Below are positions 3,822-33,600 of a stretch of DNA of 64,000 nucleotides, piece after piece. The translations under genes were made by a program, and so were the position numbers. Numbering within the stretch: the stretch's first letter is position 1; each line of letters starts with the position of its first letter. The stretch is from contig OZ249436.1 of the NCBI GenBank assembly GCA_965235115.1, positions 4,714,001 to 4,778,000 on the forward strand, given 5' to 3'. This DNA comes from Laetmonice hystrix. Lineage: Eukaryota. The notes under the pieces were generated by a model. The model saw only the letters and a program-made list of their open reading frames with translations, ran no database searches and was not told where the DNA came from.

Positions 3822-5595
3822 TCTTACTCTTACTCTTAGGTGCGCCGTAGACACACTGCAAAATGATAATCTAACCCTGGAGTGGAGTCAGTTGAGTCAG
3901 TCAGGACCTGACCCCCCCCCCCCCCCCGACCCGCCATTGGAATAGGGATACTGGATAGATATGCCTATAGGCCCGCTCCTATTCATATTGGCTATTAAAC
4001 AAAACAAACTCTCGACTCCTTTATTTGGCCTACAAACGCGACCCGAGAGGTTGGGATGCAGGTGACGGGCGTCCCCCGGGACACAGTTGGGAGAACGCCG
4101 CGAAGGGCCACACCTGATCGACCCGGGTGGACGATAAAGGACCGATTCTTGCCTATGAAAATATATACTTTGACGCTCTTGTCGACAAGTACACCATCAG
4201 TCGTAGCTTCGAAAATACAAGTTACAATCAATGACTACATGTCGGCCTATACATACGCCGAATTATTTTTTAAACAGAGGAATAAAGAGTGGCAAGGACT
4301 GGGAGAACAATGCTACCTACCTACCACCTAACTAGTGCAGCTACCTCTCGCCGTTACACCACTTCCCGTTTAAAATGCGCGCGCAACATTCATGACGTCA
4401 TTGACGGGTATTTGACAAGTTTATGACGAGGGAAAAGTGTCAGAAACTCCCTAAATATCACGAAGTCTTTGACAACCGACAAACTTGTCACCGTTGAAGA
4501 TGCATTGACGAGGCTTTGACGAGGCTGGGTTTTCTGTGTAATTCCCTTGAAAAGACGTCATTTGGGAAACCCCTCGGCATAGGCATCGGAAGATATTAAA
4601 AGTTGGGGGGGGGGGGGCAAAGACCAAATCATAGGTCCCAAGTTCCAAGATTTGAAATGCTCTACAATGAAAACATGGACCCGTCAAAAATTAGACAAGT
4701 TTAGGCTTGTCAATCTGACAGTGTCGAAATCAACAAGTCAATTTGTCATATCCTTGTCAATAACAAGCTTGTCATAGCCTTGTCAATAGGCCTCTACTTG
4801 CTTGTCATATCCTTGTCAATAAATGTACAGGTCATTTCCAGGTCACAGGTCATGTTCCTCCGCCTGAGAACTGTTTCCCGTCGTTAGTTGATCCTCCTGA
4901 CTCTCACTGCAAGGTGCTTCCTGCCCTTCCATCCAGTGAGTCCTCCCGACCGTCACTGCCGTAATCCTGCTGGAGTCCTGCATGTCCTGATACAAGTACC
5001 AATAACTGTTAAAGTTATTAAAATAAGTAACGAAATGATTACCATGAACAAAGATTAACATGTTCAAAACAGGTTTGAAGAGTGAGATATTTAAATACTT
5101 TTAAAAAGCAGACTTAGCTATTACGTACCCCTCTCGACGGATCGACCTTGTGTCCGTTAAGTGCTGGGAATTGTCAAAATTTGTCATTGGGCTTGACTAG
5201 GCTAAACTCGTCATTTTGACAATCAGTTGACAACTCAAAGTTTTCAGCGTAGTCATGAGAGCGCCGAAGGCGTGAAGCCTCGAGCGGGGGGTCTGGGGGC
5301 CCTCTTCCAGAAAAATCTGAAAATTAAAGTGCCCCCTGACGGTCTGACCATCTCCTGCCACCTTTAGGCTGGAGGGGGGGGCAAAACTATATACTTCCTG
5401 ATAGTTCTAGTGTTGGCTGCCATGTCCACTGTGAAAAACCTACAACCGCGTCCGTAACTGTATCCGTGTCCGCATCCGGACCTGTGGACACGCAGCTGGG
5501 GATCAGACGAATGGCGACGTTAGTCCTCACCTCGAGCTAACATTTTCGTGATATGTGATTTCCGGACAGGAATGAGGGGAAATATCGCATTAGTT

Positions 5596-5750
5596 ACGCC
5601 ACGTGAGTATAGCAAGTCGTTGTATCACGCCACGTGAGTATAGCAAGTCGTTGTATCACGCCACGTGAGTATAGCAAGTCGTTGTATCACCCCACGTGAG
5701 TATAGCAAGTCGTTGTATCACGCCACGTGAGTATAGCAAGTCGTTGTATA
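5596..5750. repeat. 31-bp tandem repeat x5, each unit containing CACGTG
   Basis: Unit acgccacgtgagtatagcaagtcgttgtatc; a single unit sits at the paralogous site near 1910. Confidence 0.9.
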
Positions 5751-6637
5751 AACACGTGTTAGTCTCCGCCTACGGTAAGAGTGGAGCAGAATGAATGACT
5801 CCGTAAGGAAATCATATCTCCTCAGCCAAAAACACGCTGGAAGGGCACATCTCGCCTATATTTCTACAAATTTGATATGTCTGGTTCGATTTTAACCTTT
5901 TGCATGTCAAACGAAATGTCTTGAAATCGACATCCCATTTCTTAATGTTTACTGGCAGCATATATGAGACGTGCTTTATTATAACTAAAGATCTAAGGCC
6001 CTGTGTTTGGGCGAGAACTGGACGCACTATGCATCAACAGCATCAAGCCACTTAGAACATCCACAGATGTGAACAGATTATCCAATCCCTGACTACAAAT
6101 AGCTAATTTCATTCCTTTTAATTGTTTTCCATCATACTTGATTTCCAAACTCCTATTCAACAGACCATTTCTGAGTGTATATTTTGTTATTGTTGGAGTA
6201 ACCCTGTTGTGTGCAAGTGTTCTTCGGGACCGCGTGATCGTGGCAGACGTAGTATACCTGTACAGTGCAGTAGGTCGGAAATCTGCCTGGACGGAATCGT
6301 ATGCTATATGGTGAGTTCTAATTGTTGTGCGGATATGCGTCCACGATTTCCGTAGACAGGGCTTTCGTTCTTTACAAAGTTTTTTTCGCCTTTATTATAA
6401 TTTTCAAGAACATAACCTAGAAACTTTTTGAATATAAAAGCTAGCAGCCGCCTCCTCCTCCCCTTCTTGTTTTTCTTACGTTTGGACTGCCTCATATATT
6501 TTCTTGGGAAACCTATACGTTGCAGACACAGACGAAAAGCTGACTAAGCGATCATGTACAATAATCGTGAGGTCTTATCTTTCACGTCGACTCGTATGAA
6601 GCAGGTGTAGATCACACCTATAAACCTAATTCCTTTA

Positions 6638-14300: not shown

Positions 14301-17134
14301 ATGCCGCTGGAGTTGTACATTTGGCCGACGAGTCCACCGTGTAAGGCCACGCTAATGGTGTGTCTGGCGGCTGGAGTCGATGTCAAAGTCAAAATGGTGA
14401 ACTTGCCACAGGGCGAGCATCGACGGGAGACCTTCACTAAAGTAAGTCAGCCGTTAAAAGCCGACTTTCGGCGTGAGACCTCCACTAAAGTAAGTCAGCC
14501 GTTAAAGGCCGACTCTCGACTCGAGACCTCCACTAAAGTAAGTCAGCCGTTAAAGGCCGACTCTCGGCTCGAGACCTTCACTAAAGTAAGTCAGCCGTTA
14601 AAGGCCGACTCTCGGCTCGAGACCTTCACTAAAGTAAGTCAGCCGTTAAAGGCCGACTCTCGGCTCGAGACCTCCACTAAAGTAAGTCAGCCGTTAAAGG
14701 CCGACTCTCGGCTCGAGACCTTCACTAAAGTAAGTCAGCCGTTAAAGGCCGACTCTCGGCTCGAGACCTTCACTAAAGTAAGTCAGCCGTTAAAGGCCGA
14801 CTCTCGGCTCGAGACCTCCACTAAAGTAAGTCAGCCGTTAAAGGCCGACTCTCGGCTCGAGACCTTCACTAAAGTAAGTCAGCCGTTAAAGGCCGACTCT
14901 CGGCTCGAGACCTTCACTAAAGTAAGTCAGCCGTTAAAGGCCGACTCTCGGCTCGAGACCTTCACTAAAGTAAGTCAGCCGTTAAAAGCCGACTTTCGGC
15001 GTGAGACCTCCACTAAAGTAACAGGGCTGTCCAAAGTTGAGGCTGCTTGGTGCTCAACACGCGTAAATCCGCGCACCAGAATTACCAACCGAGTAACAGG
15101 GAAAAACAGTTTTCCAATAACCAGAAATACTTGGTCGCCCACGTGGGCAAGTAAGTGTCGCCCAACAGAACATTTGCTCACCTAACTACTTTTGCTTTTT
15201 TCAACAATCATTCTGGGCCCATTTTTTGTGTCAGCTGTTCTAAAAATTATTATTTTATAAACTGAGCTGCTTGACAAATGATCAGGATGTAAACAAAAAT
15301 AGGTACATCGCCCATGATAACTTAAACACCACGAAATTTGGTGGAAAGTAAAGATCCATGGCCCTGACCTTATCCCTAACCCCTAACCCCAGTCCCTACA
15401 CCTGCCAAAAACATATCCCTATCCTATCCATATCCCTATCCCTGACCTTAACCCTAACCCCTGCCCAAACATTTCGTGGTAAGTTATCATGGGGGAAGAC
15501 CCCAAAAATATGTGTACACAAGAACGGCTGTTAGGTTTAAGGAATAAGGGCGCATCTAAGACACCGAGAGACAGAGAGTAAGATACATAGGCCTATATTC
15601 ATTTTTAAGTTTTGTCGCTCACTTTTTTTCTTGTCGCATTTGTGTCACTGTTGTCGCTCCATGGCGCGACATAGCGACAAATGGACAGCCCTGAGTAAGT
15701 CAGCCGTTAAAGGCCGATTCTCGGCTGGAGACCTTCACTAAAGTAAGTCAGCCGTTAAAGGCCGACTTTGGGCGGGAGACCTTTACCAAAGTAAGTCAAC
15801 CGTTAAAGGCCGACTTTGGGCGGGAGACCTTTACTAAAGTAAGTCAGCCGTTAAAGGCCGACTCTCGGCGGGAGACCTCCACTAAAGTAAGTCAGCCGTT
15901 AAAGGCCGACCTTGGGCGGGAGACCTTCACTAAAGTAAGTCAGCAACTAAAGGCCGACTCTAAATTTAAGTCATTCCATGGACTAACTTCAGGGGACGTT
16001 CTTGGAAATGCCATTCGTACTCATCTATGCATAAACTCACTTCTGTACGCTATATCGTGGCAGTAATATAATTATATTTGCTCCGACTTTTCAGATGAAT
16101 AATTTCCAGTGTGTTCCAGTGCTTGACGACAATGGTGTTTTCATACACGAAAGGTGCAGCAGTGTAAATTGTTTTCACCAATACTGAAAGGCGAACTCTG
16201 CAGATTGCATTGCGTCTGTCAGATTGACAATGAAGCCAAACAAGTGTATGCATTGCACAGCGTAACAACTTTTCTTTTATGACAATTTTCGTCACCATCT
16301 AGTTTATGGAGCCAAGGATATTTTGCACGCTAATGTATGTACATGCATTATATGGTAGAATTTACATGAATTTTAGCGCCGTAATTAATTCTCTTTTTTC
16401 GAGCATTGTGTGGTTAAATCGTTAAATAACATGACGTTTACACAGTAATCGTTTCACTTTTACAAGCCGGTCGATCATGCGTTACGTGGTGGATAAATAC
16501 AGCCGGGTGGACAAGTTATATCCATCAGATCCTCACCAGAGGGCGCGCGTGAATGCCGTCTTAGATTACGACTGTGGCACTGTATCTCCCACGGTCCAAT
16601 CATACGTGGTCTGTAGCTTTAGGCACACCAGCTGGGTTTATAAGTAGATCTATACAAAATTAGTTTGCAAATATTACTTTTGTATTTTGGGCTTACGTGT
16701 ATTGTGACTAAATATCATTCAGTACAATTGATTTCTCGTCTTTCCTATGGATTGATTTTGAATTGTATTCATTTTGTTTCTGCGAAATATCCTGTGAAAC
16801 ATTTTGTCCTGACTGAGACTGACTGCCTTGCCCTCGCCAGTGCCCGCAGGTATTCCAACACCAAGAAGAGGACCCCGTGTGGAGAGGACGGTTGTTACGG
16901 GTACTCGGTCTCCTGGAGTCCTCGCCGTCCTACTGGCAGGAGGACTACCTTACTGGACCTTCAGTCACTATCGCTGATCTCTCCTTGACTGCCACTCTCT
17001 CCTTCCTCGAGGTGATCCACTTCGATATCTCTCGCTTCCCACAGCTACAAACCTGGCACGGACGAATACGCAATCTGCCCTACTACTCCAGAGTACACGA
17101 AACGTGCCAAGGTTTTATGGTGAACAAGTCTTAA
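14301..17134 (+). CDS. Cytosolic glutathione S-transferase, theta/delta-like (catalytic Ser), 211 aa; exons 14301-14441, 16095-16153, 16467-16608, 16841-17134
   Basis: Spliced translation MPLELYIWPTSPPCKA...NLPQGEHRRETFTK|MNNFQCVPVLDDNGVFIHES|RSIMRYVVDKY...LYPSDPHQRARVNAVLDYD...|...YLTGPSVTIADLSL...FPQLQTWHGRI. It has Ser11-PPC, the cis-Pro VP, ES and the TIAD N-cap. All introns are GT-AG and phase-consistent; AATAAA near 17555. Confidence 0.92.
15022..15693. mobile_element. Non-autonomous DNA transposon with 12-bp TIRs and 5-bp TSD (hAT5-like)
   Basis: TIR cagggctgtcca / tggacagccctg; TSD agtaa at 15017-15021 and 15694-15698. The satellite resumes in register after it. Confidence 0.85.
15302..15502. 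mobile_element. Nested ~200-bp MITE with 8-bp TSD and CCCTAA-like interior
   Basis: Imperfect TIRs ggtacatcgcccatgataact / agttatcatgggggaagaccc with subterminal accacgaaat/atttcgtggt; caaaaata on both flanks. Confidence 0.65.
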
Positions 17135-22216: not shown

Positions 22217-22461
22217 CTTAAGATCAACAAATTATATAAAGTTACAATTTCGTTTATTTGATACGAAAAAACAATAATGACGTGTTTTATACATCATAAA
22301 TACATTTCAATACATGTAGATACTCTTCCATTTAGAGGGCAGGGCGTCAAGTTGGAAATATGGTTCCTGCTATCTACCAGTCCGTATATATGTGTAGCTG
22401 TGACTAGAGCAAGACGGCCAAACAAGTTTGCCACCGTTGTCGTGTAGACTCGACCTTCGAA

Positions 22462-22598
22462 AAAAACGGACTAGATTATAATGCTGATGGCGGGAAGTGA
22501 TGATAAAAAACGGACTAGATTATAATGCTGATGGTGGGAAGTGATGATAAAAAACGGACTAGATTATAATGCTGATGGCGGGAAGTGATGATAAAAAC
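22462..22598. repeat. ~45-bp tandem repeat x3
   Basis: Unit aaaaaacggactagattataatgctgatggcgggaagtgatgat. Confidence 0.9.
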
Positions 22599-22819
22599 GC
22601 TGTCTTTCCTATGTCACCGGTCTCAGCTGTGGATCAGGGTTTGGCAAGGTAGGGGGTAATTAAGCTTTCTAAATTACACCGGCCTTTTTTTTTAAATTAG
22701 ATTCATACATCGACCTCACAGACCCTAGTTATAGGGGAGAAAATGGGGGTCGCTACGTCCAGACAATTGTAGGCCCTCCCCCTCCCGATCTACTGCTGTC
22801 TTCTCTCTATCTCTGAGTC

Positions 22820-23945
22820 AGCTGTTCCAGGCCACATTCACGTCCCAACACCAACCACTGTCCCAGCCGACTCCACACCGTGTGCACACTGACCTCCTGG
22901 CACCGGGTTCTCCACCATGGTCACTCCTCCACACTCGGACTCCGCTGTTCTAGGCCACAGTCACGTTCCAACACCAACCACTGTCCCAACCGACTCCACA
23001 CCGTGTGGACACTGGCCTCCTGGCACCGGGTTCTCCACCATGGTCACTCCTCCACACTCGGACTCCGCTGTTCTAGGCCACAGTCACGTCCCAACACCAA
23101 TCACTGTCCCAACCGACTCCACACCGTGTGCACACTGACCTCCTGGCACCGGGTTCTCCACCATGGTCACTCCTCCACACTCGGACTCCGCTGTTCTAGG
23201 CCACAGTCACGTCCCAACACCAATCACTGTCCCAACCGACTCCACACCGACACCGTGTCCACACTGGCCTCCTGGCACCGGGTTCTCCACCATGGTCACT
23301 CCTCCAGACTCGGACTCCGCTGTTCTAGGCCACAGTCACGTCCCAACACCAACCACTGTCCCAACCGACTCCACACCGACACCGTGTCCACACTGGCCTC
23401 CTGGCACCGGGTTCTCCACCATGGTCACTCCTCCAGACTCGGACTCCGCTGTTCTAGGCCACAGTCACGTCCCAACACCAACCACTGTCCCAACCGACTC
23501 CACACCGACACCGTGTCCACACTGGCCTCCTGGCACCGGGTTCTCCACCATGGTCACTCCTCCAGACTCGGACTCCGCTGTTCCAGGCCACAGTCACGTC
23601 CCAACACCAATCACTGTCCCAACCGACTCCACACCGTGTGCACACTGACCTCCTGGCACCGGGTTCTCCACCATGGTCACTCCTCCACACTCGGACTCCG
23701 CTGTTCCAGGCCACAGTCACGTCCTAACACCAACCACTGTCCCAACCGACTCCACACCGTGTGCACACTGGCCTCCTGGCACCGGGTTCTCCACCATGGT
23801 CACTCCTCCAGACTCGGACTCCGCTGTTCCAGGCCACAGTCACGTCCCAACACCAATCACTGTCCCAACCGACTCCACACCGTGTGCACACTGGCCTCCT
23901 GGCACCGGGTTCTCCACCATGGTCACTCCTCCACACTCGGACTCT
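22820..23945. repeat. 123/129-bp minisatellite, ~9 copies, overlapping the end of the 24124-23840 exon
   Basis: Repeated ggcaccgggttctccaccatggtcactcctcca...; some units carry an extra 6 bp (gacacc). Confidence 0.95.
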
Positions 23946-24124
23946 TGATGTCTCCTCCTGTTACGAGCCTCTGTCTTCCTCCGGAGTAGCTCGGCCCATT
24001 TCTCCGGCCGGTAAAGTCGGAGTCGCTGCCGGTACCGCTGCATACTCTCCCGCTTCCGGCGTCTCTTCTCCTCCTCCAGCGTCTCGGGCGCCCTCTGTCC
24101 ACCGCCACACGAACTAGGCCACAT
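23840..24124 (-). CDS. Putative alternative terminal exon B of the 28785 gene; basic helical segment (94 aa)
   Basis: Acceptor ...ggtggtttcag|ATG in phase 0, matching the phase-0 donor at 28011. Encodes MWPSSCGGGQRAPETLEEEKRRRKRESMQRYRQRLRLYRPEKWAELLRRKTEARNRRRHQ...; minus-strand AATAAA at 22258-22253. Confidence 0.6.
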   Translation of the reverse strand: MWPSSCGGGQRAPETLEEEKRRRKRESMQRYRQRLRLYRPEKWAELLRRKTEARNRRRHQESECGGVTMVENPVPGGQCAHGVESVGTVIGVGT

Positions 24125-25038
24125 CTGAAACCACCGGTACGGGCGGATATGAGGGAAAAGACGGAACAACCATTAACTCGGCAGGGGTGCTAATGATTCC
24201 AACGGTAAAGGGATTCTCGGTAATTTTGAAAAATATCTCGAATAGCCAAGAAAAAAGTAACTCAAGCTCCAACATTCTAGTTATTTGTGTGAAAAAATGA
24301 AAGCAAAATTCCATTCTGGTTAACTGCTACCGACACGATTTGAACGTTTTAAGCTGTTCCACCCTAGGTTTTACGTCCCCGCGTCTGGTCCGGCTCACCC
24401 CCCCCCCCCTAACTTTATAAAAAGTGTATTGAGGAAATTTTAGGGATGAATCGGTCAATGAATGACCCGAATGTGATCTGCTAGCGTCCAGATGTGCCCA
24501 TGTTGACATCTATATCAATATTTGTATCTCCTATATCCCGACGGGGTTTGTTGTGAGAAATAAACGTAAACTTCACCCAACCCCGTAGGTGTATAGGGTT
24601 ACGTGGCCTGGAAGTGGTGACCACACCGAACCCTTGCTGACTATACTAACTGCCTCACAGCACGGCTCCATTCGTTAGATGCCGTCCAATACCGACTACT
24701 TCTACACCCCTGGCCATGGTAAAGTTCCGACCTTAGCACCGTCGTATCTGTTCCTTTCCCCTAATACACGTAGGCCTGTTCATGTACAGTATTTAACATT
24801 TGTTATGTGGGGCCGGTAAAATTCTCCGCCTTGCACACAGTTCCAGTGCACAGATCTGTACTATAGACATTGTATTTATTTTGTATTCAAACAACACTGC
24901 TCTGAAACCACGAAGGAGATGGGTACACGTTCGGTGAATGTTGGGTGAATACGGTTAATCAGACAGTGTTCACACCTGCGCACTTTTAACTCGCTCCTAG
25001 TTTGACCTCCTGGCAATCCTTGTATAATTCCCCGTGGG

Positions 25039-26204
25039 GACCGCCACCCTCCGGCCCTTCCAGCACCCAGGAACCTTCACTTTATCGGCGTGTCCTGTGG
25101 GTTATAGAGCAGACCGCCACCCTCCGGCCCTTCCAGCACCCAGGAACCTTCAGTTTATCGGCGTATCCTGTGGGTTATAGAGCAGACCGCCACCCTCCGA
25201 CCCTTCCAGCACCCAGGAACCTTCACTTTATCGGCGTGTCCTGTGGGTTATAGAGCAGACTGGCACCCTGCGGCCCTTCCAGCACCCAGGAACCTTCAGT
25301 TTATCGGCGTGTCCTGTGGGTTATAGAGCAGACCGCCACCCTCCGGCCCTTCCAGCACCCAGGAACCTTCACTTTATCGGCGTGTCCTGTGGGTTTTAGA
25401 GCAGACCGCCACCCTCCGGCCCTTCCAGCACCCAGGAACCTTCAGTTTTTCGGCGTGTCCTGTGGGTTATAGAGCAGACCGCCACCCTGCGGCCCTTCCA
25501 GCACCCAGGAACCTTCACTTTATCGGCGTGTCCTGTGGGTTATAGAGCAGACCGCCACCCTCCGGCCCTTCCAGCACCCAGGAACCTTCAGTTTTTCGGC
25601 GTGTCCTGTGGGTTATAGAGCAGACCGCCACCCTCCGGCCCTTCCAGCACCCAGGAACCTTCACTTTATCGGCGTGTCCTGTGGGTTATAGAGCAGACCG
25701 CCACCCTGCGGCCCTTCCAGCACCCAGGAACCTTCACTTTATCGGCGTGTCCTGTGGGTTATAGAGCAGACTGCCACCCTCCGGCCCTTCCAGCACCCAG
25801 GAACCTTCAGTTTTTCGGCGTGTCCTGTGGGTTATAGAGCAGACCGCCACCCTCCGGCCCTTCCAGCACCCAGGAACCTTCACTTTATCGGCGTGTCCTG
25901 TGGGTTATAGAGCAGACCGCCACCCTCCGGCCCTTCCAGCACCCAGGAACCTTCACTTTATCGGCGTGTCCTGTGGGTTATAGAGCAGACTGCCACCCTC
26001 CGGCCCTTCCAGCACCCAGGAACCTTCACTTTATCGGCGTGTCCTGTGGGTTATAGAGCAGACCGCCACCCTGCGGCCCTTCCAGCACCCAGGAACCTTC
26101 ACTTTATCGGCGTGTCCTGTGGGTTATAGAGCAGACTGCCACCCTCCGGCCCTTCCAGCACCCAGGAACCTTCACTTTATCGGCGTGTCCTATGGGTTAT
26201 AGAG
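25039..26204. repeat. 73-bp minisatellite, 16 copies
   Basis: Unit gaccgccaccctccggcccttccagcacccaggaaccttcactttatcggcgtgtcctgtgggttatagagca; period 73 (25039 vs 25112). Confidence 0.95.
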
Positions 26205-26779
26205 CTGGTGCGATGGCAGTACATGTAAATGAATTCCTCCGTTAATCAAGGTTTCCGCAAACTGTGACCGCTCAAATTAAAAATGGCTAATCTTGATCTT
26301 AGACAAAAGCCGTAGTAAAATCTTTGCTTCCAATTCGAACTGAACCCAGGAATAATGTTTCCGATGCCTGTCGGGTTTTATTCCACTCCCTGAATTAACA
26401 AACGTTTTTGACAGCATCCACTGTACTAGGCGATACTCATGAAAGACACTAACCTACAAAGGCTACGATTTTCAAAATCACCCCCAAAGCCAAGCGAATT
26501 TTAGATCTATAACAAAAGAAAAATTAATGCCAGATGATCCAATCTTCTTTATTGTTTTACATCATTAGCATGTGAGGCAGAATGGGTATTTTAAGTAAAC
26601 ACTTGAAATTTTCGTTTATATTAAACAATAGCTGCGCAATGAGTTTCATTAGAAAGATGAGTTGTACCAAGAGGACAAGATTTTAACTGTGACAATAAGA
26701 TGTCCTCGGAGAACCCCCTCCCGTGACCTCCTGGACACAAACAGTGACCGACTCATGGTGACACAGATCTTTATCATTA

Positions 26780-28785
26780 TCATGGCGAAGGTTCGGAAGC
26801 GTCCAACTTGGGCGGCAGATACAAAGAGAATTGTTCTCGCAGCATCTGAACCTCGTCATCAGTCAGTCCCATGGATTCCAGCGGGAAAAGTTCCACTTGA
26901 TAGGGACACATAGTCATTAATGATTCCACGTAACTATACCACGACTTGGCAGTCCCTGCCAACGCCTGAGGGTTCATATGGAAGAGTTCACTGTACCGTT
27001 TTAGGGTAAGTCGAGCATTACTGAGAGCCTCTGGTCTCAAAATGGATGGAGGACACTTGAAGAAGACTTTGATGCGTGATGTTATCTCGACGTATTCACC
27101 AATATAGTGAGCGTGTCCGCGTGGCTTACTGAGGGCTTTCATGGCCTTCAGCACCGAGTTGACGCCGACTTTCATGGTCTGACATATACACCGGGGGATC
27201 ACCACACAGGCCCGCTGGCCGATGATGTTCGCCACCAAGCGGTTAAACTTGAAAGCTTCCATCTCCACCTGCTCTGCTGTCAGTGCTGCCCCCTGGTTTT
27301 CAACCAAGCCTAGTGGCGTCATCTGGGGAGAAATGAACATGCCTGTTGGTTGGCACACTGGATGCACTGGAGTCTTACATTAATTTCCCCCACAGCTTGA
27401 CATTCTGACCTCTGTCTTTTCCCTCCAAGGTCATTGCAGATCAAGGACCGGCTTAGTGTCCGAGTTCTTTCAAATTTCAAATGCAGATTTAATACTCTGA
27501 TAAAGGGAACAATGTCAATGAAACAAAATTTAATTATCCCAAACACGTGCCATGTACTTTTGTATATATGGTGTTGAACGTTGAATGCTTCTTTCAGTAA
27601 ATTAAGCAACCATTTGTACTACAAAAGTTATATTGGTAATTGGGCTATCTAGTAGTAAAGGGGGCAGCAGTAAAATGTTTAACAGTGATTATGTAGAAAT
27701 TTATCAATCAAACTACTAGAGCAACACAAAAATATGTTTGTTCAAATTGTTGATCAACTCAACATAATATTAACTATCCACAGGTATAAGACGAAACACA
27801 ATTTTGCAACTGATATAAAAGACTATTTGAGAACCTATTATATGCCTAAATAATTATTTTTTTAATTTTCAAGTACCAGTATCTTTATTAAGATAATCGC
27901 AGGGCTAATGTAACCTTATTTCCAATTATTGAAACCATTTTTTTAAATATTACCGTATGTTACATGAAGACTATAAATTAAAATATCTTAGTCAAGGAAA
28001 ATTATAGTTACCATCCTCTGCTGCTGACATTGCACAAAGTCCTCAGAAGCTGAAATGCACCTATCCGGAGTATCCTGGTATCCACCTGCTAATAGTCTGA
28101 CCTCTTCAGGTATGTATGTGGCCTCTGGACCTAATAACATTTCCTGACTTATCCCTTGAATATCTTTACCTAACGTGACTCTCTCCCCTAATGACACGTT
28201 TGGCATCATGTTGAATATAGCTGTCTTTGAGGTTTCCACAGACTCTGAGTCGGAATGAACCTCTTCTTTAATAACCACTGACTCCCTGCTATGTTCATTG
28301 TTCAAAGCTGAGCCACTGGCACGTGGACTGCCACAGGGAGCAAGCCGTTTATAATACTGTCCAGACTGGTGATCCTCACTCAGTCTCTGACTTTGACAAC
28401 TTGAGTAAGACCTCTTCCTTCCCGGGTTCCCTGAACTCTTCAATATGCTGTCAATTCTGCTTTCACTTTGATGAGATTCATGAAGCTCGGCAGTACTATC
28501 TTGAGGGTTCTCTGAAAACTTAGAAGTTACACTGTTACAACTTGAGCTCTTAATGTTTTTGCAGACAGCCTGAGGACAATCAGACTCAAAACTTTTTTCT
28601 TTGTCACTGCTGATGAGCTCATTGACTTTGACTAAAAATATGTCCTCTTTGTCGAGTGTGATGGCCAGCAGCCCCTCGATAGTGAGCTCCGAATTGAAAC
28701 TGAGGCCGTTTTTACAAAGCACAGTAATTGCCTCGGTGAGTAAGGCTTGGATCTTGTGCCGGTCCTGCTTCGCCACCATCGTCAT
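26780..28785 (-). CDS. Uncharacterised protein, isoform A (~438 aa); coding exons 28785-28012 and 27322-26780
   Basis: Long ORFs joined by ATG|GTAACT (28011) and ttcatttctccccag|ATG (27322), phase 0. The N-terminus (KIQALLTEAITVLCKNGLSFNSELTIEGLLAITLDKEDIFLVKVNE) looks globular; I recall a similar unnamed domain in lophotrochozoan nuclear proteins but cannot verify this. A Ser-rich linker with IKEE follows. Minus-strand AATAAA at 26553-26548; upstream acceptor at 28916. The start could be the ATG at 28779. Confidence 0.8.
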
Positions 28786-30049
28786 AGTGTGGCTGTTCAC
28801 GATCGTAGGGCAGTGGTTCAATGGTCACTGGATTACTCCTCACGTCACCTCTCCAGGTCTGTGACAACAGCTTACAGCCACTGCTCCCAGATCCTACTGA
28901 AGTCTGAAGTCCTATCTGAAGTCAAAGGAAACCATGTATTACTTGTCTCTTGTTTTAAACTCTTCAACATATTGGTCCGGACGCCACCTTCTTACAATCC
29001 CCAAATAAGATCAAATAAATCAAATAGCGGAGGTTTGTAGAAAAAGACATTTCATAATTTATTTACTCAATTACTGCATGTTCATTCATTGACTGAGTCT
29101 AGACTCTACAGTACTCTGTGTCAGGCTCTGGCTCTGCCTCTGGTCAGCTATAATAATATACGGGGATCTCGCTGGCCGCTCACCACTTCGCCATCGGCGA
29201 ACAGAACTGCAATGTGGCTAATAAATTTAATTAATGGGTCGCCACTTTGGCAACTGCTTCCCGGCCCACCTATCCAGTGTCATTCATGGTGCCAGCCCAG
29301 CATTGTCGATCACTCGCTGCCGCTGAACCACTGATGTGACCTTTGACCCCACCAAGTTGCAGACCTGTGTCTCAAACTCATCATGTAATGCCACGTGCCT
29401 CCCTTATTGGAAGGTGTTGTGGCCTGTGAGTGGAGGTGGGTGGGAGAAACATTTGGTGTTGGGGGGGGGGGGGGGCAAACCTGTTGATGGAGCAGGTGTG
29501 AGCGGGATGAGAGGCTTCTGTTACCAGCCAGTTGTCAGTGCATCTGTGATCAGTAGTCCTGCGAAAGGATGCTGCTGTAGCCATCTCCCAAAAGGGGTTG
29601 TCTCAAAAATGTGTTTTTAAAATGTGTGACAAAATATTTAAAATGTGGGACCACTGTGACTGGGGGACCCTGTATTAAGTCATGAATAGGACTGGTTGTG
29701 CTGCACAATGAACATTCAACGTGGGGAAATAGACCTTTTTACCAAATGACTTTTGTGGCTAATGGATCATAAATGTGGCTCATCAAAACTCTGTTCAGTT
29801 AGCCACAGCCACAGGCACAGTGACAGTCACAGTCAGTGGCTAATGATTTTTGAAATCCTAGCCTAGCGAGATCCTTGATTAAAAACGATTATGAAACCCT
29901 CAACTCAAGCTCAAACGCTACTCCAACAAGCCAGAGTCTGATATCTGATAATGTACAACAAACTAGCAGAAACAGGGTCTAGGTTCCTGGACTAGCTCAA
30001 ACGCCAAAGGGAGGGCGGTAACTTAGTATATCATAATATAATCCACCTA

Positions 30050-30693
30050 CCACCTGTTAAGTGTTTTACTGTCAACATAGAACTAGGTTTTCTAGTTTTA
30101 TGCTGTCAACAACCGTGTAGCATCACCGACAGCCGACATCAACACTGCCACCGGATGTAGAATTAGATCAGAGAGTGCGATTAGATTCCGTCCACTACGT
30201 ACCAACATGGTTCTGATATTTTCCACCAGGCGGCAGTGCCGGGGCTCGTTTCACTAAACACTCGTATTTTATTTTTACGAGCTCGTAATTTCTATAGATC
30301 ATAATAGCAAAATGTACGAGGGGTTCTCAAGGCGTCGATGGGGTTAGGGCTATGGTTTTTTTATTGTACTTGACTCCTTCCTTGTGGCTGTGATTTCCTT
30401 TTTAGATCTTTTTAGGCTCCCATGTCATTAATGATTTTGTCTGCTAATGCTATTCGGCTGAGATACATAGGGCAGCGAAAAATGTACTGTTTCTAGTTTA
30501 CTTTAAAGCTTTACTCAAGTTAATTTTTTTTTGCAAAACTTGGCCCTGGTGTTATTTTCCATAGAACGTTCTATGCCGGGAAAGAGCACAAGCTGGCCCA
30601 AACCCAGAAACATGAAAATGACCTAGTGTGTTTAAGCGAATAAAGAGAGTTCGACTTTGGCACTGGGTGATCACGCTGCTTTCTATACCAACC
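30050..30693. promoter_or_regulatory. Candidate bidirectional promoter between the minus-strand gene and ACOX, with a CTCF-like motif
   Basis: The two genes are head-to-head. A minus-strand donor GTAGGT near 30050 suggests a 5' UTR exon, and CCACCAGGCGGCAG lies at 30223-30236. Confidence 0.4.
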
Positions 30694-33600
30694 ATGGCGT
30701 GGATGAGGGTTGGGGATCAAAGCCCGACTGAAGTTCATCCTGATTTACAAAGGGAACGCAAAACTGCCACGTTCTGTCCTGAGCTACTGACAAATCTACT
30801 GGATGGAGGGAAAGACCACACCGATCGTCGACGGCAAGTGGGTGCGTGTAGGCCTACACACTACTGGCCAGTTTTGGAGTGCAGCCCTTGGAACTGAGGC
30901 GTAATGTAGGACAAATATAATTCGGGCAGTTTTCTCAATCCATCTTCTTCGGGCAATGACCATTTATAGCGCCTGCCCTCAACGTTTTAGGTTCTCCATA
31001 ATCATACAAACAAAAATAAAACAATACCAACAAGAATTTTTTAAAATTATGAAGAATAATCATAAAAGATTTACAATGCTTTATTATGACAAACTGGCAG
31101 TTAAACTTAAAGTTACCTCATTGCCAACTGTAGGCCTATAATATATTAAATGAAAATAGCCTACCTCTAGAGTTCATTGAAATTACTAATTAATATAAAT
31201 GTGTGTTTATTTATCCACAGTTAGCACCCTTTTCCAGAACGCTGCCTTTGACCCCAAAGATTCCCATTTCCTGTCACGTTGGGACTCCTATGGCCGTGCG
31301 CTTCAAAAGGGTACGAAACTTCTGTCTGTAGGAATCCAACACGGCTGGAACAGGGACGATTTCAACCATGCTGTCAGGTAACAGGAAGGAAAAGTTTGAC
31401 AGTCACAGAGTGTCCGTGTATGACCGACCCATGACGTGCATTGGCTGTCAGAACCCATCATAACTATAGATTGAGATGGGGAGAAAAAAAAACCAGCCGA
31501 ACTGATTTTTTTATGAAAAAGCACATTTTGGTTACATCTACAGAGCGGTAACTATACACCATAAATTTAAAAGAGACAGATGTGCTAATTGTAGTAGGGT
31601 GGGGGCCGGCTCCCTAGAAAATTTCTTCAGACATATAGGCCCGAACTGGCTCAGAATGAGAGGAGGCTCCAGCATTCATGAGAGTGTTGGTCAACAAAGT
31701 GTTTGAATGGCCTTATATACTCCGTACAACATCAGGATAATATATTGGAAATTTCTTTATATTCCCTCACTGATTCCCAACAAGATCTTCTAAGATATTA
31801 GGAAGTAATCTCTAACTTTCACTGATAGGTTGTGTGCTTTTCCTCACGATGGAAATTTATTTGCAGTTTACTATTTTATTTCAGTGAGGGCGATTCATTA
31901 ATTAAAACATGTGTTGTTCCTTTAGCTAACCTTAACACCTAGAGTCATGGGATTCTCCTGATAGCAAAAGCTAATTCAATGCTCCTCACTGTAGATCCAT
32001 TCGGTTTGATGTCGGAATGGGCGTACATGTTATAATGTTTCTCCCTGCCATCGAACGTCTGGCAACGGACGAACAGAAGGCCGAGTGGCTCCCCCTAGCG
32101 ATGAGTCTGAAAATGATCGGTACCTACGCTCAAACTGAACTCGGACATGGTAAGTTACAGAGGTATAACTCCCTAGCCGGGTCATGGTAGTTTTGGGGAA
32201 TGTGACATTTTCAGTCCTAAATGGTTAAACGTATTGAACCGAGCATGGATGAGCCTGATGAGGTAGTCCTTTATATAATATGAAAAAGTAAACCTTAGGC
32301 CTAGCTGCAACAGATGAGTTGGGAGAAACAGCCGTGTTCAACTGAATATTAATAATGCCAGTTTATTTATGGTTTTCTTGTCTTTACTTAAATAGGGACT
32401 AACCTCCGGGAACTTCAAACCACGGCCGAGTACAACCCAACGACACAGGAGTTTGTGTTAAACACACCATTTCCAACAGGAATGAAATGGTGGCCAGGAG
32501 GGTGTGAGTTTAAGTTTGTAAGAGAAGAGAATATCAATACTTCAGGTGGCTAGAATTCAACAAGAATACTGTCCGCATATAGATCTATACATGCAGCACC
32601 TGAGAGAAAGGGAGAACAGTACTACATGTAGTTTTACGTATGCACAACCTTATATTTAATGTAGAATAATGTCATTTTTTTAAAATCATTATTAGCAAGG
32701 GTTATTAACTGTATTAAATGATTGGTGTAATTTCTTTATTGTTTTTAAAGTGGGGAAATCGTCAAACCATGTATTGTTACTGGCCCAGCTGATTGTGAAG
32801 GGGAAAAGATGTGGTATGCAGGCCTTCCTAGTCCCAATACGAAGTATGGAAACACACAAACCACTACCGGGTATGTAACTTCATACCCACTGAACCCAAA
32901 CAGGTATGTAACTTCATACACACTGAACCCAGACAGGTATGTAACTTCATACCCACTGAACCCAGACAGGTATGTAACTTCATACCCACTGAACCCAGAC
33001 AGGTATGTAACTTCATACCCACTGAACCCAGACAGGTATGTAACATCATACCCACTGAACCCAGACAGGTATGTAACATGACACCCACTGAACCCAGACA
33101 GGTATGTAACTTCATACCCACTGAACCCAGACAGGTATGTAACTTCATACCCACTGAACCCAGACAGGTATGTAACTTCATACCCACTGAACCCAGACAG
33201 GTATGTAACATCATACCCACTGAACCCAGACAGGTATGTAACATCATACCCACTGAACCCAGACAGGTATGTAACTTCATACCCACTGAACCCAGATCTT
33301 CATACCCACCCAACCCAGACAGGTATGTAACTTCATACCCACTGAACCCAGACAGGTATGTAACTTCATACCCACTGAACCCAGACAGGTATGTAACTTC
33401 ATACCCACTGAACCCAGACAGGTATGTAACTTCATACCCACTGAACCCAGACAGGTATGTAACTTCATACCCACTGAACCCAGACAGGTATGTAACTTCA
33501 TACTCACTGAACCCAGACAGGTATGTAACTTCATACCCACTGAACCAAGACAGGTATGTAACTTCATACCCACTGAACCCAGACAGGTATGTAACATCAC

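Follow-up and report, generated by a model that had tools for sequence, protein, structure and literature searches.

We analysed a 64 000-nucleotide stretch of Laetmonice hystrix DNA (contig OZ249436.1, positions 4 714 001 to 4 778 000, forward strand; hereafter the window, numbered from its first letter). Its minus strand carries a gene with one common coding exon, which encodes a small N-terminal domain (the N domain), followed by two candidate last exons of different type, B (proximal) and C (distal). Four sequencing runs (X1–X4) from one sample and study contain the region, and their contigs were compared with it over 26210–32860. The features of the locus are as follows.

28012..28915 (-): common first coding exon; acceptor 28915, ATG 28785, 258 codons, phase-0 donor 28011; X4 contigs span 28012–28757
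28609..28770 (-): unnamed N-terminal domain, residues ~6–59; AlphaFold2 mean confidence (pLDDT) 88.3; matches in this genome and in databases
27323..28011 (-): 689-nt GT..AG intron to the proximal end exon; joint in an X4 contig, depth 27.4; intron covered by X1–X3
26780..27322 (-): end exon B, coding part; 180 amino acids (aa), predicted winged helix-turn-helix (HTH) at residues ~16–105 plus a helical tail
26548..26553 (-): AATAAA, 227 nt past the exon B stop; motif only; the X4 contig ends at 26714
25039..26205 (no strand): minisatellite of 73 bp, 16 copies, between end exons B and C
23840..24124 (-): end exon C, coding part; 94 aa, Arg/Lys-rich helix at residues ~16–58, homologous to end exons of two paralogues
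22821..23944 (no strand): minisatellite of 123 bp, 9 copies, from which exon C takes its stop and most of its 3' untranslated region (UTR)
22253..22258 (-): first AATAAA past exon C, 1.6 kb beyond the stop; motif only
14301–17134 (+): glutathione S-transferase (GST) gene, on the opposite strand to the window gene and bounding its locus

The common exon begins at an acceptor (28916/28915) that leaves a 130-nt 5' UTR ahead of the ATG, and ends in the donor ATG/GTAACT at 28012/28011. Behind the N domain it encodes about 200 Ser/Glu/Lys-rich residues, which form a poorly conserved linker. Exon B opens at a CCCCAG/ATG acceptor (27322) and exon C at TTTCAG/ATG (24124), both in phase 0; they run for 180 and 94 codons to stops at 26782–26780 and 23842–23840, respectively, and the pyrimidine tracts of their acceptors are moderate (14/20 and 13/20). 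All coordinates that a first-pass annotation, made from the sequence alone, had given for the common exon (28785–28012) and its phase-0 donor hold, as do the two CAG/ATG acceptors and the stops of the end exons. That annotation had also assigned to each end exon its own AATAAA. Such motifs do lie at 26548 and 22253, but the minus strand between 21000 and 28100 holds four AATAAA and three ATTAAA, including a further AATAAA beyond exon B at 26382–26377, so that a lone AATAAA is weak evidence for the end of an exon. Pfam returned no family at E<=1 for the 258-aa product of the common exon, and none for either end-exon product. No second N-domain exon was found in the 64-kb window, and no third end exon between 24124 and the GST gene.

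The contigs of X1–X3 span the intron between 28011 and 27323, as DNA would; in X4 both exons are covered and the intron between them is skipped. One X4 contig of 1022 nt joins 28012 directly to 27322, leaving out the 689 nt (CT..AC on the plus strand, that is, GT..AG on the strand of the gene). No record states that X4 is RNA; we infer this from the exon-only cover and the GT..AG joint, and X4 is treated as RNA here. Of the two junctions for which the first-pass annotation had proposed to look, the proximal one is thus present in one X4 contig, and the isoform that combines the front with the winged helix (438 aa) is real. The same contig passes unbroken through the donor, and there is no loose end at 28012 among those listed, 245 further X4 loose ends lying outside that set; contigs drop rare forms, and the X4 pattern says nothing on exon C.

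What had been described as a 180-aa globular-looking end now has a structural model. AlphaFold2 (pLDDT 83.6) gives exon B a winged-helix topology, namely a three-helix bundle with a beta wing (helices 16–34, 43–50 and 54–64, a short strand after the first helix, and strands 75–79 and 85–89), followed by a helical tail. Its structural neighbours are of the BrxR, PadR, MarR and Z-alpha types (Z 5.6–6.8; best match Z 6.8, root-mean-square deviation 2.7, 72 residues aligned), with no match at the family level and no fold at E<=0.001 in searches of the PDB or of viral folds. Sequence searches found no match among longer proteins and no PDB relative, and a profile of exon B gave two matches among 1212 candidates. 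An origin of exon B from a virus or transposon was considered; fold and sequence searches gave it no support. In the genome of the organism (627 Mb searched), exon B has six paralogues (seven matches among nine candidates), each ended by a stop and provided with a phase-0 acceptor. In a tree of these domains, that of the window gene is on a long branch.

Joining of exon C to the common exon would give a second isoform of 352 aa, in which the front precedes a basic helix. The Lys/Arg-rich helix noted in the first-pass annotation proved homologous to exons of paralogous genes, but only the first 60 codons of exon C are unique, the last 34 lying within the 123-bp minisatellite. Of 1926 frames of the window, the one at 24124 scores best against a profile built only from the two basic-helix exons of paralogues (E 7.8e-9; next 1.2). 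One of these homologues stands directly behind an N exon at C1:30.45 Mb (53% identity, E 0.0023) and the other at C1:31.70 Mb (41% identity, pairwise E 1e-8), with 57% identity between the two. Genome searches have low sensitivity for this motif; two separate searches each missed one of the three C exons. No PDB match was found for the C type. A likeness to the STPR repeat found no support in Pfam.

The window gene belongs to a large family. Of 50 candidate matches to the N domain in the genome, 38 were retained, none with an internal stop, and 31 of them are located on contig C1; this number of genes is a lower bound, and a second query gave 37 matches. The window gene lies apart from the main clusters of these genes, in a repeat-swollen region. 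Thirty loci were taken, two of which extended beyond the sequence available for them; in 27 of the other 28, the first-exon frame has its best terminal donor in phase 0. As a control of phase, acceptors followed by a frame of at least 130 aa were counted at eight loci: phases 0, 1 and 2 occurred 19, 1 and 2 times on the gene strand, and once each on the opposite strand. All B (7/7), C (3/3) and D (56/56) matches, D being a further end-exon type described below, are situated on the strand of an N exon and at most 55 kb downstream of it, a target that makes up 0.17% of the genome.

We read the DNA downstream of 13 paralogues, mostly 9–24 kb each. At least two stop-ending phase-0 exons are present in nine of them, and up to 20 candidates stand behind one first exon, so that the homologous loci do carry the arrays of terminal exons for which the first-pass annotation had proposed to look. 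The end exons of these nine are listed below.

30.42 Mb: three B exons
C1:31.69 Mb: N, B and C, in the same order as in the window gene
31.68 Mb: two HTH-like (below the Pfam cut-off) and two C2H2
19.95 Mb: two C2H2, one B and 17 D matches (15 read, with phase-0 acceptors)
36.50 and 36.69 Mb: a pair of C2H2-type exons at each
46.64 Mb: an exon with another domain, and 17 D matches
C2:16.94 Mb: two basic exons and six D matches
29.33 Mb: seven single-finger-type exons in 10 kb and seven D matches

Three additional genes have two D matches each, and about 88 candidate end exons behind 20 genes have been recorded so far. They encode C2H2 fingers, HTH-like domains, winged helices, basic helices and an unnamed 215-aa domain, and different domain types are interleaved in one array. 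C2H2 fingers are above the Pfam cut-off in several end exons (at 29.33 Mb, in one of the two finger exons checked), HTH-like domains are recognized only below it, and none of the end exons scanned matches FLYWCH. Many end exons start without Met; both end exons of the window gene and some paralogous ones start with ATG. Arrays of 17–20 exons extend over 28–51 kb, and nearly all exons are followed by a polyadenylation hexamer. No N-domain exon was found inside any array DNA that was read, the remainder of the long arrays resting on genome searches.

The unnamed domain of about 215 aa, D, has been found only as end exons of this family (C1:19918630-19938054, C1:46591254-46636757 and eight other loci in the genome search), and has no match in Pfam or the PDB. 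Of the 56 matches, 55 lie in open frames of at least 219 aa, with no internal stop despite deep divergence (32–44% identity to the first row of the alignment), and one copy is a 101-aa fragment. The D arrays clearly grew through tandem duplication of end exons. The D type occurs in both well-supported clades of the family tree, and the recurrence of B, C and D modules behind different paralogues points to either an old shared ancestor or movement of exons. In the tree of N domains, 3 of the 33 inner branches are starred, and the tree leaves unsettled whether the window gene and the paralogue with the order N, B, C are sisters.

Several further observations concern these loci. At C1:12469324 (+), C2H2-type fingers follow the N domain in frame, without an intron. 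At C1:46641207 (-), an additional unnamed end-exon type of 235 aa stands directly behind the N exon and ahead of the D array; its first 186 residues have no Pfam match. A Polinton-like insertion (C1:~30420000-30438500; DNA_pol_B_2, E 4e-22; blocks of a 56-bp repeat at both ends) separates the N exon at 30.416 Mb from its three B exons, and just before this insertion lies a 45-codon phase-0 exon candidate (L040:1316-1450, +) with a weak Myb/SANT-like match below the cut-off, possibly a truncated end exon. Upstream of the window gene, at 29100–30430, there are high-copy repeats with summed contig depths of hundreds to thousands. In the GST gene, 48-bp repeats start at the end of the first coding exon, in the first intron (14427–15021 and 15694–15961). 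Near-identical frames about 3.7–3.8 kb apart (197–2861 and 3897–6543) represent a local tandem duplication.

AlphaFold2 models the N domain as one helix (residues 6–27) and a long beta-hairpin (strands 33–44 and 48–59, of 12 residues each; pLDDT 88.3). Foldseek gave no match at E<=0.001 and the best structural match had Z 4.2, which does not establish a new fold. In the ESM Atlas, neither the N domain nor exon B had a usable match. The first-pass annotation had called this domain unnamed and non-BTB, and by sequence this is borne out: besides the absence of a Pfam family, a profile search of the PDB with the N domain found no BTB chain, and neither the window protein nor 134 relatives scanned (from the best 150) match BTB, ZAD, KRAB or SCAN in Pfam. 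The N domain has just one conserved Cys; ZAD has four. Its profile retrieved 1722 cluster representatives at E<=0.001. Three of the 134 scanned relatives carry C2H2 fingers above the cut-off, and most database relatives are first-exon frames that read into an intron. Among 20 relatives looked up, the one named to species is from the annelid Paralvinella palmiformis. No relatives of the N domain were found in 24 stretches of viral contigs or in 102 prokaryote genomes, and the database proteins and loci include no pair with one common first exon and two different spliced ends. Six database relatives (P0009-P0014) bear the N domain twice. Since the domain would be too small and open for a stable monomer and is positioned like BTB in lola, it is probably an oligomerisation module, by analogy. 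A two-copy complex prediction for residues 1–64 scored 0.02 (run without an alignment, the fold itself being uncertain).

A scan of metagenomes yielded 86 relatives of the N domain among 172 stretches, from which 79 loci were kept; contigs from other animals share the layout. One of them (L072) has the N domain, a second common exon and then four separate four-finger end exons, and frames of B type follow the N domain in three of the 79 (L119, L059 and L123). In L085, L095, L115 and L087, the N domain and fingers share one frame, as in spliced transcripts; in L087 the fusion is to a single finger, and a second finger exon with its own acceptor follows 540 nt past the stop. At L119:1494-2837 (+), a single end-exon frame contains two or more B-type winged-helix units in tandem. 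The stretch L094:2638-2997 has a BEN-like appearance and the end of L093 a pogo-HTH-like one, neither of which Pfam supports.

Alternative DNA-binding ends on a common interaction domain are textbook knowledge for arthropod BTB genes. The likeness of the present family to lola is that a common N-terminal region is joined to one of many alternative 3' exons, and its likeness to mod(mdg4) is a long 3'-exon array behind one common part, here with up to 20 candidates. In mod(mdg4), part of the exons are encoded on the opposite strand, whereas the end exons tested here are colinear and on one strand. The ZAD, KRAB and SCAN zinc-finger families consist of a lineage-restricted small N-terminal domain, a linker and C2H2 fingers, and diversify mainly via whole-gene duplication; the concentration of 31 of 38 N-domain genes on one contig resembles their clustered expansion, but in the present family end exons have also been multiplied inside genes, and many of the ends are of types other than zinc fingers. 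According to PMC11426971, different C2H2 fingers form the ends of 17 of 20 lola isoforms, mod(mdg4) has at least 30 isoforms, mostly with FLYWCH, and ttk, broad and fruitless (the Tramtrack group of BTB genes) have isoforms that differ in the DNA-binding end behind a multimerising front. The paralogue at C1:29.33 Mb, with its seven single-finger-type end exons, resembles lola in this respect, and several isoforms with differing DNA-binding ends would be shared with the Tramtrack group. In contrast, no BTB is recognizable here by sequence, FLYWCH was not seen in the end exons scanned, at least 38 genes replace the single lola locus, and the ends include a winged helix, a basic helix and the unnamed 215-aa domain.

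The common 5' coding region with an array of same-phase, stop-ending 3' exons is present, and the 3' exons encode DNA-binding domain types (C2H2 by Pfam, and B by its predicted fold, which has the winged-helix elements), whereas the N-terminus carries no BTB/POZ recognizable by sequence and no ZAD, KRAB or SCAN domain. The window gene would work like lola and mod(mdg4) without being one of them, as by sequence it lacks the defining BTB; the lola/mod(mdg4)-like layout on an unnamed non-BTB domain that the first-pass annotation had suggested turns out to extend over a far larger scale, at least 38 genes. Because PMC11426971 reports no TTK-type motif in Annelida or Mollusca, the N-domain family cannot be its orthologue and the layout is convergent. 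Full-text searches found no description of the N domain or of the system, most subscription papers being outside their coverage. Four short N-domain motifs do not occur in the 37-gene table of spiralian-specific genes in PMC7441323, whose long cells were covered up to 400 characters, a length that should still include an N-terminal domain. What is new here is the scaffold domain, the family-wide scale and the unnamed end domains; the layout is already known in arthropod BTB genes.

We consider it highly probable that the window gene is one of a family of modular nuclear regulators with alternative last exons, which occurs in animals, or at least in annelids. A single large coding exon would supply the conserved helix-plus-hairpin domain of about 55 aa and a disordered linker, and end in phase 0; downstream, one to about twenty self-contained last exons would each provide a phase-0 acceptor, a domain and a stop. 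Alternative choice of the last exon would then yield proteins with the same front and different ends, including, presumably, those encoded by distal exons. For a join of the common exon to exon C the indirect support is strong: first exons of the family end almost uniformly in phase 0, the B and C types recur only behind N exons, and a paralogue repeats the order N, B, C. The simplest route would be cis-splicing in competition with polyadenylation at proximal exons. This would suffice for the window gene with its two end exons, whereas trans-splicing may be needed in long arrays. Binding of DNA by the ends would follow from established knowledge for C2H2 fingers, is likely for the HTH-like and winged-helix ends, and can only be guessed at for the basic helix and for D.

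A number of points weigh against this reading. No junction to a non-proximal exon was seen in this genome, the RNA-like splice evidence covering only the proximal exon of the window gene, in one run of one study that may come from the source sample. Three of the eight loci in the phase control had been selected for their B match, and the linkage counts are not independent, as the D, B and C matches belong to 10, 5 and 3 genes, respectively, with the 55-kb bound set afterwards and the third C exon obtained by reading downstream of an N exon. Four of the 13 paralogues have a single end exon within the DNA read, and the B exon at 43.59 Mb has its sole listed phase-0 acceptor inside the domain. 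The winged-helix match of exon B is middling at Z 6.8, and a fold alone says nothing of function. Among the 79 loci of other animals, most of which are short, no C- or D-type exon was found. Finally, exon C of the window gene has one of the two basic repeats found in its paralogues, and with this single repeat and its minisatellite end may be decaying.

This last point leads to an unlikely alternative, in which exon C is a relic in this copy and only the isoform with the front and the winged helix is made. The first basic repeat is missing and the stop comes from a minisatellite, in a gene that lies outside the main clusters, in a repeat-swollen region, and whose B domain is on a long branch; however, the acceptor, phase and frame of exon C are intact, and its helix retains 41–53% identity to the paralogous exons, against 57% between those two. 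A further alternative, with the downstream exons as independent single-exon genes or dead tandem duplicates never joined to an N exon, is very improbable. An initial ATG in both window exons and some paralogous ones would fit it, as would the tandem origin of the D exons and the 101-aa D fragment. Yet many end exons have no initial Met, phase-0 acceptors are kept at 19:1:2, 55 of 56 D frames are open over at least 219 aa, different domain types are interleaved, and exon B is spliced rather than free-standing.

How the preferred scheme of alternative last exons would operate, and what its front domain would do, also admit other answers. We regard it as rather improbable that the distal exons have promoters of their own and are trans-spliced to the common exon, as in mod(mdg4) and lola, in which case phase 0 could even allow joining across paralogues. 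Arrays of 17–20 exons over 28–51 kb, with their many polyadenylation hexamers, would be hard to read through in cis, and the fly loci do use trans-splicing (PMC4387717 and PMC11426971). Against this, every one of the 66 matches to B, C or D is colinear with its gene and on the same strand, and none requires trans-splicing; the first 600 nt of 28 introns share no 8- to 10-mer beyond A/T runs, a weak argument, as the motif of lola is placed some 2.2 kb from the start of the intron. As for the front domain, it is possible, though on balance doubtful, that it is a KRAB-like adaptor for a co-repressor or other partner instead of a self-association module like BTB or ZAD. The helix and hairpin could equally complete a fold on a partner, the N domain precedes C2H2 arrays in some members, and KRAB is about the size of the N domain; the long two-stranded hairpin is, however, the type of element that would pair with itself into a sheet.

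Taking these considerations together, we lean slightly towards the view that in annelids, and perhaps widely in spiralians, a system of the lola/mod(mdg4) type evolved independently of arthropods, on a new oligomerisation domain and family-wide. Its dozens of fronts could hetero-oligomerise, each gene having a private array of up to twenty end exons, some with domain types found nowhere else in this genome, and phase 0 would make the ends portable between genes. If this is true, gene architecture has clearly converged here, and much of the transcription-factor repertoire of spiralians is still to be annotated. Its loci are easily mis-annotated, because the database relatives are mostly first-exon frames running into an intron. 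Three unnamed domains (the front, B and D) are supplied here, and it would become testable outside insects whether splicing in cis or in trans selects a distal last exon that many polyadenylation sites precede, and by what means.

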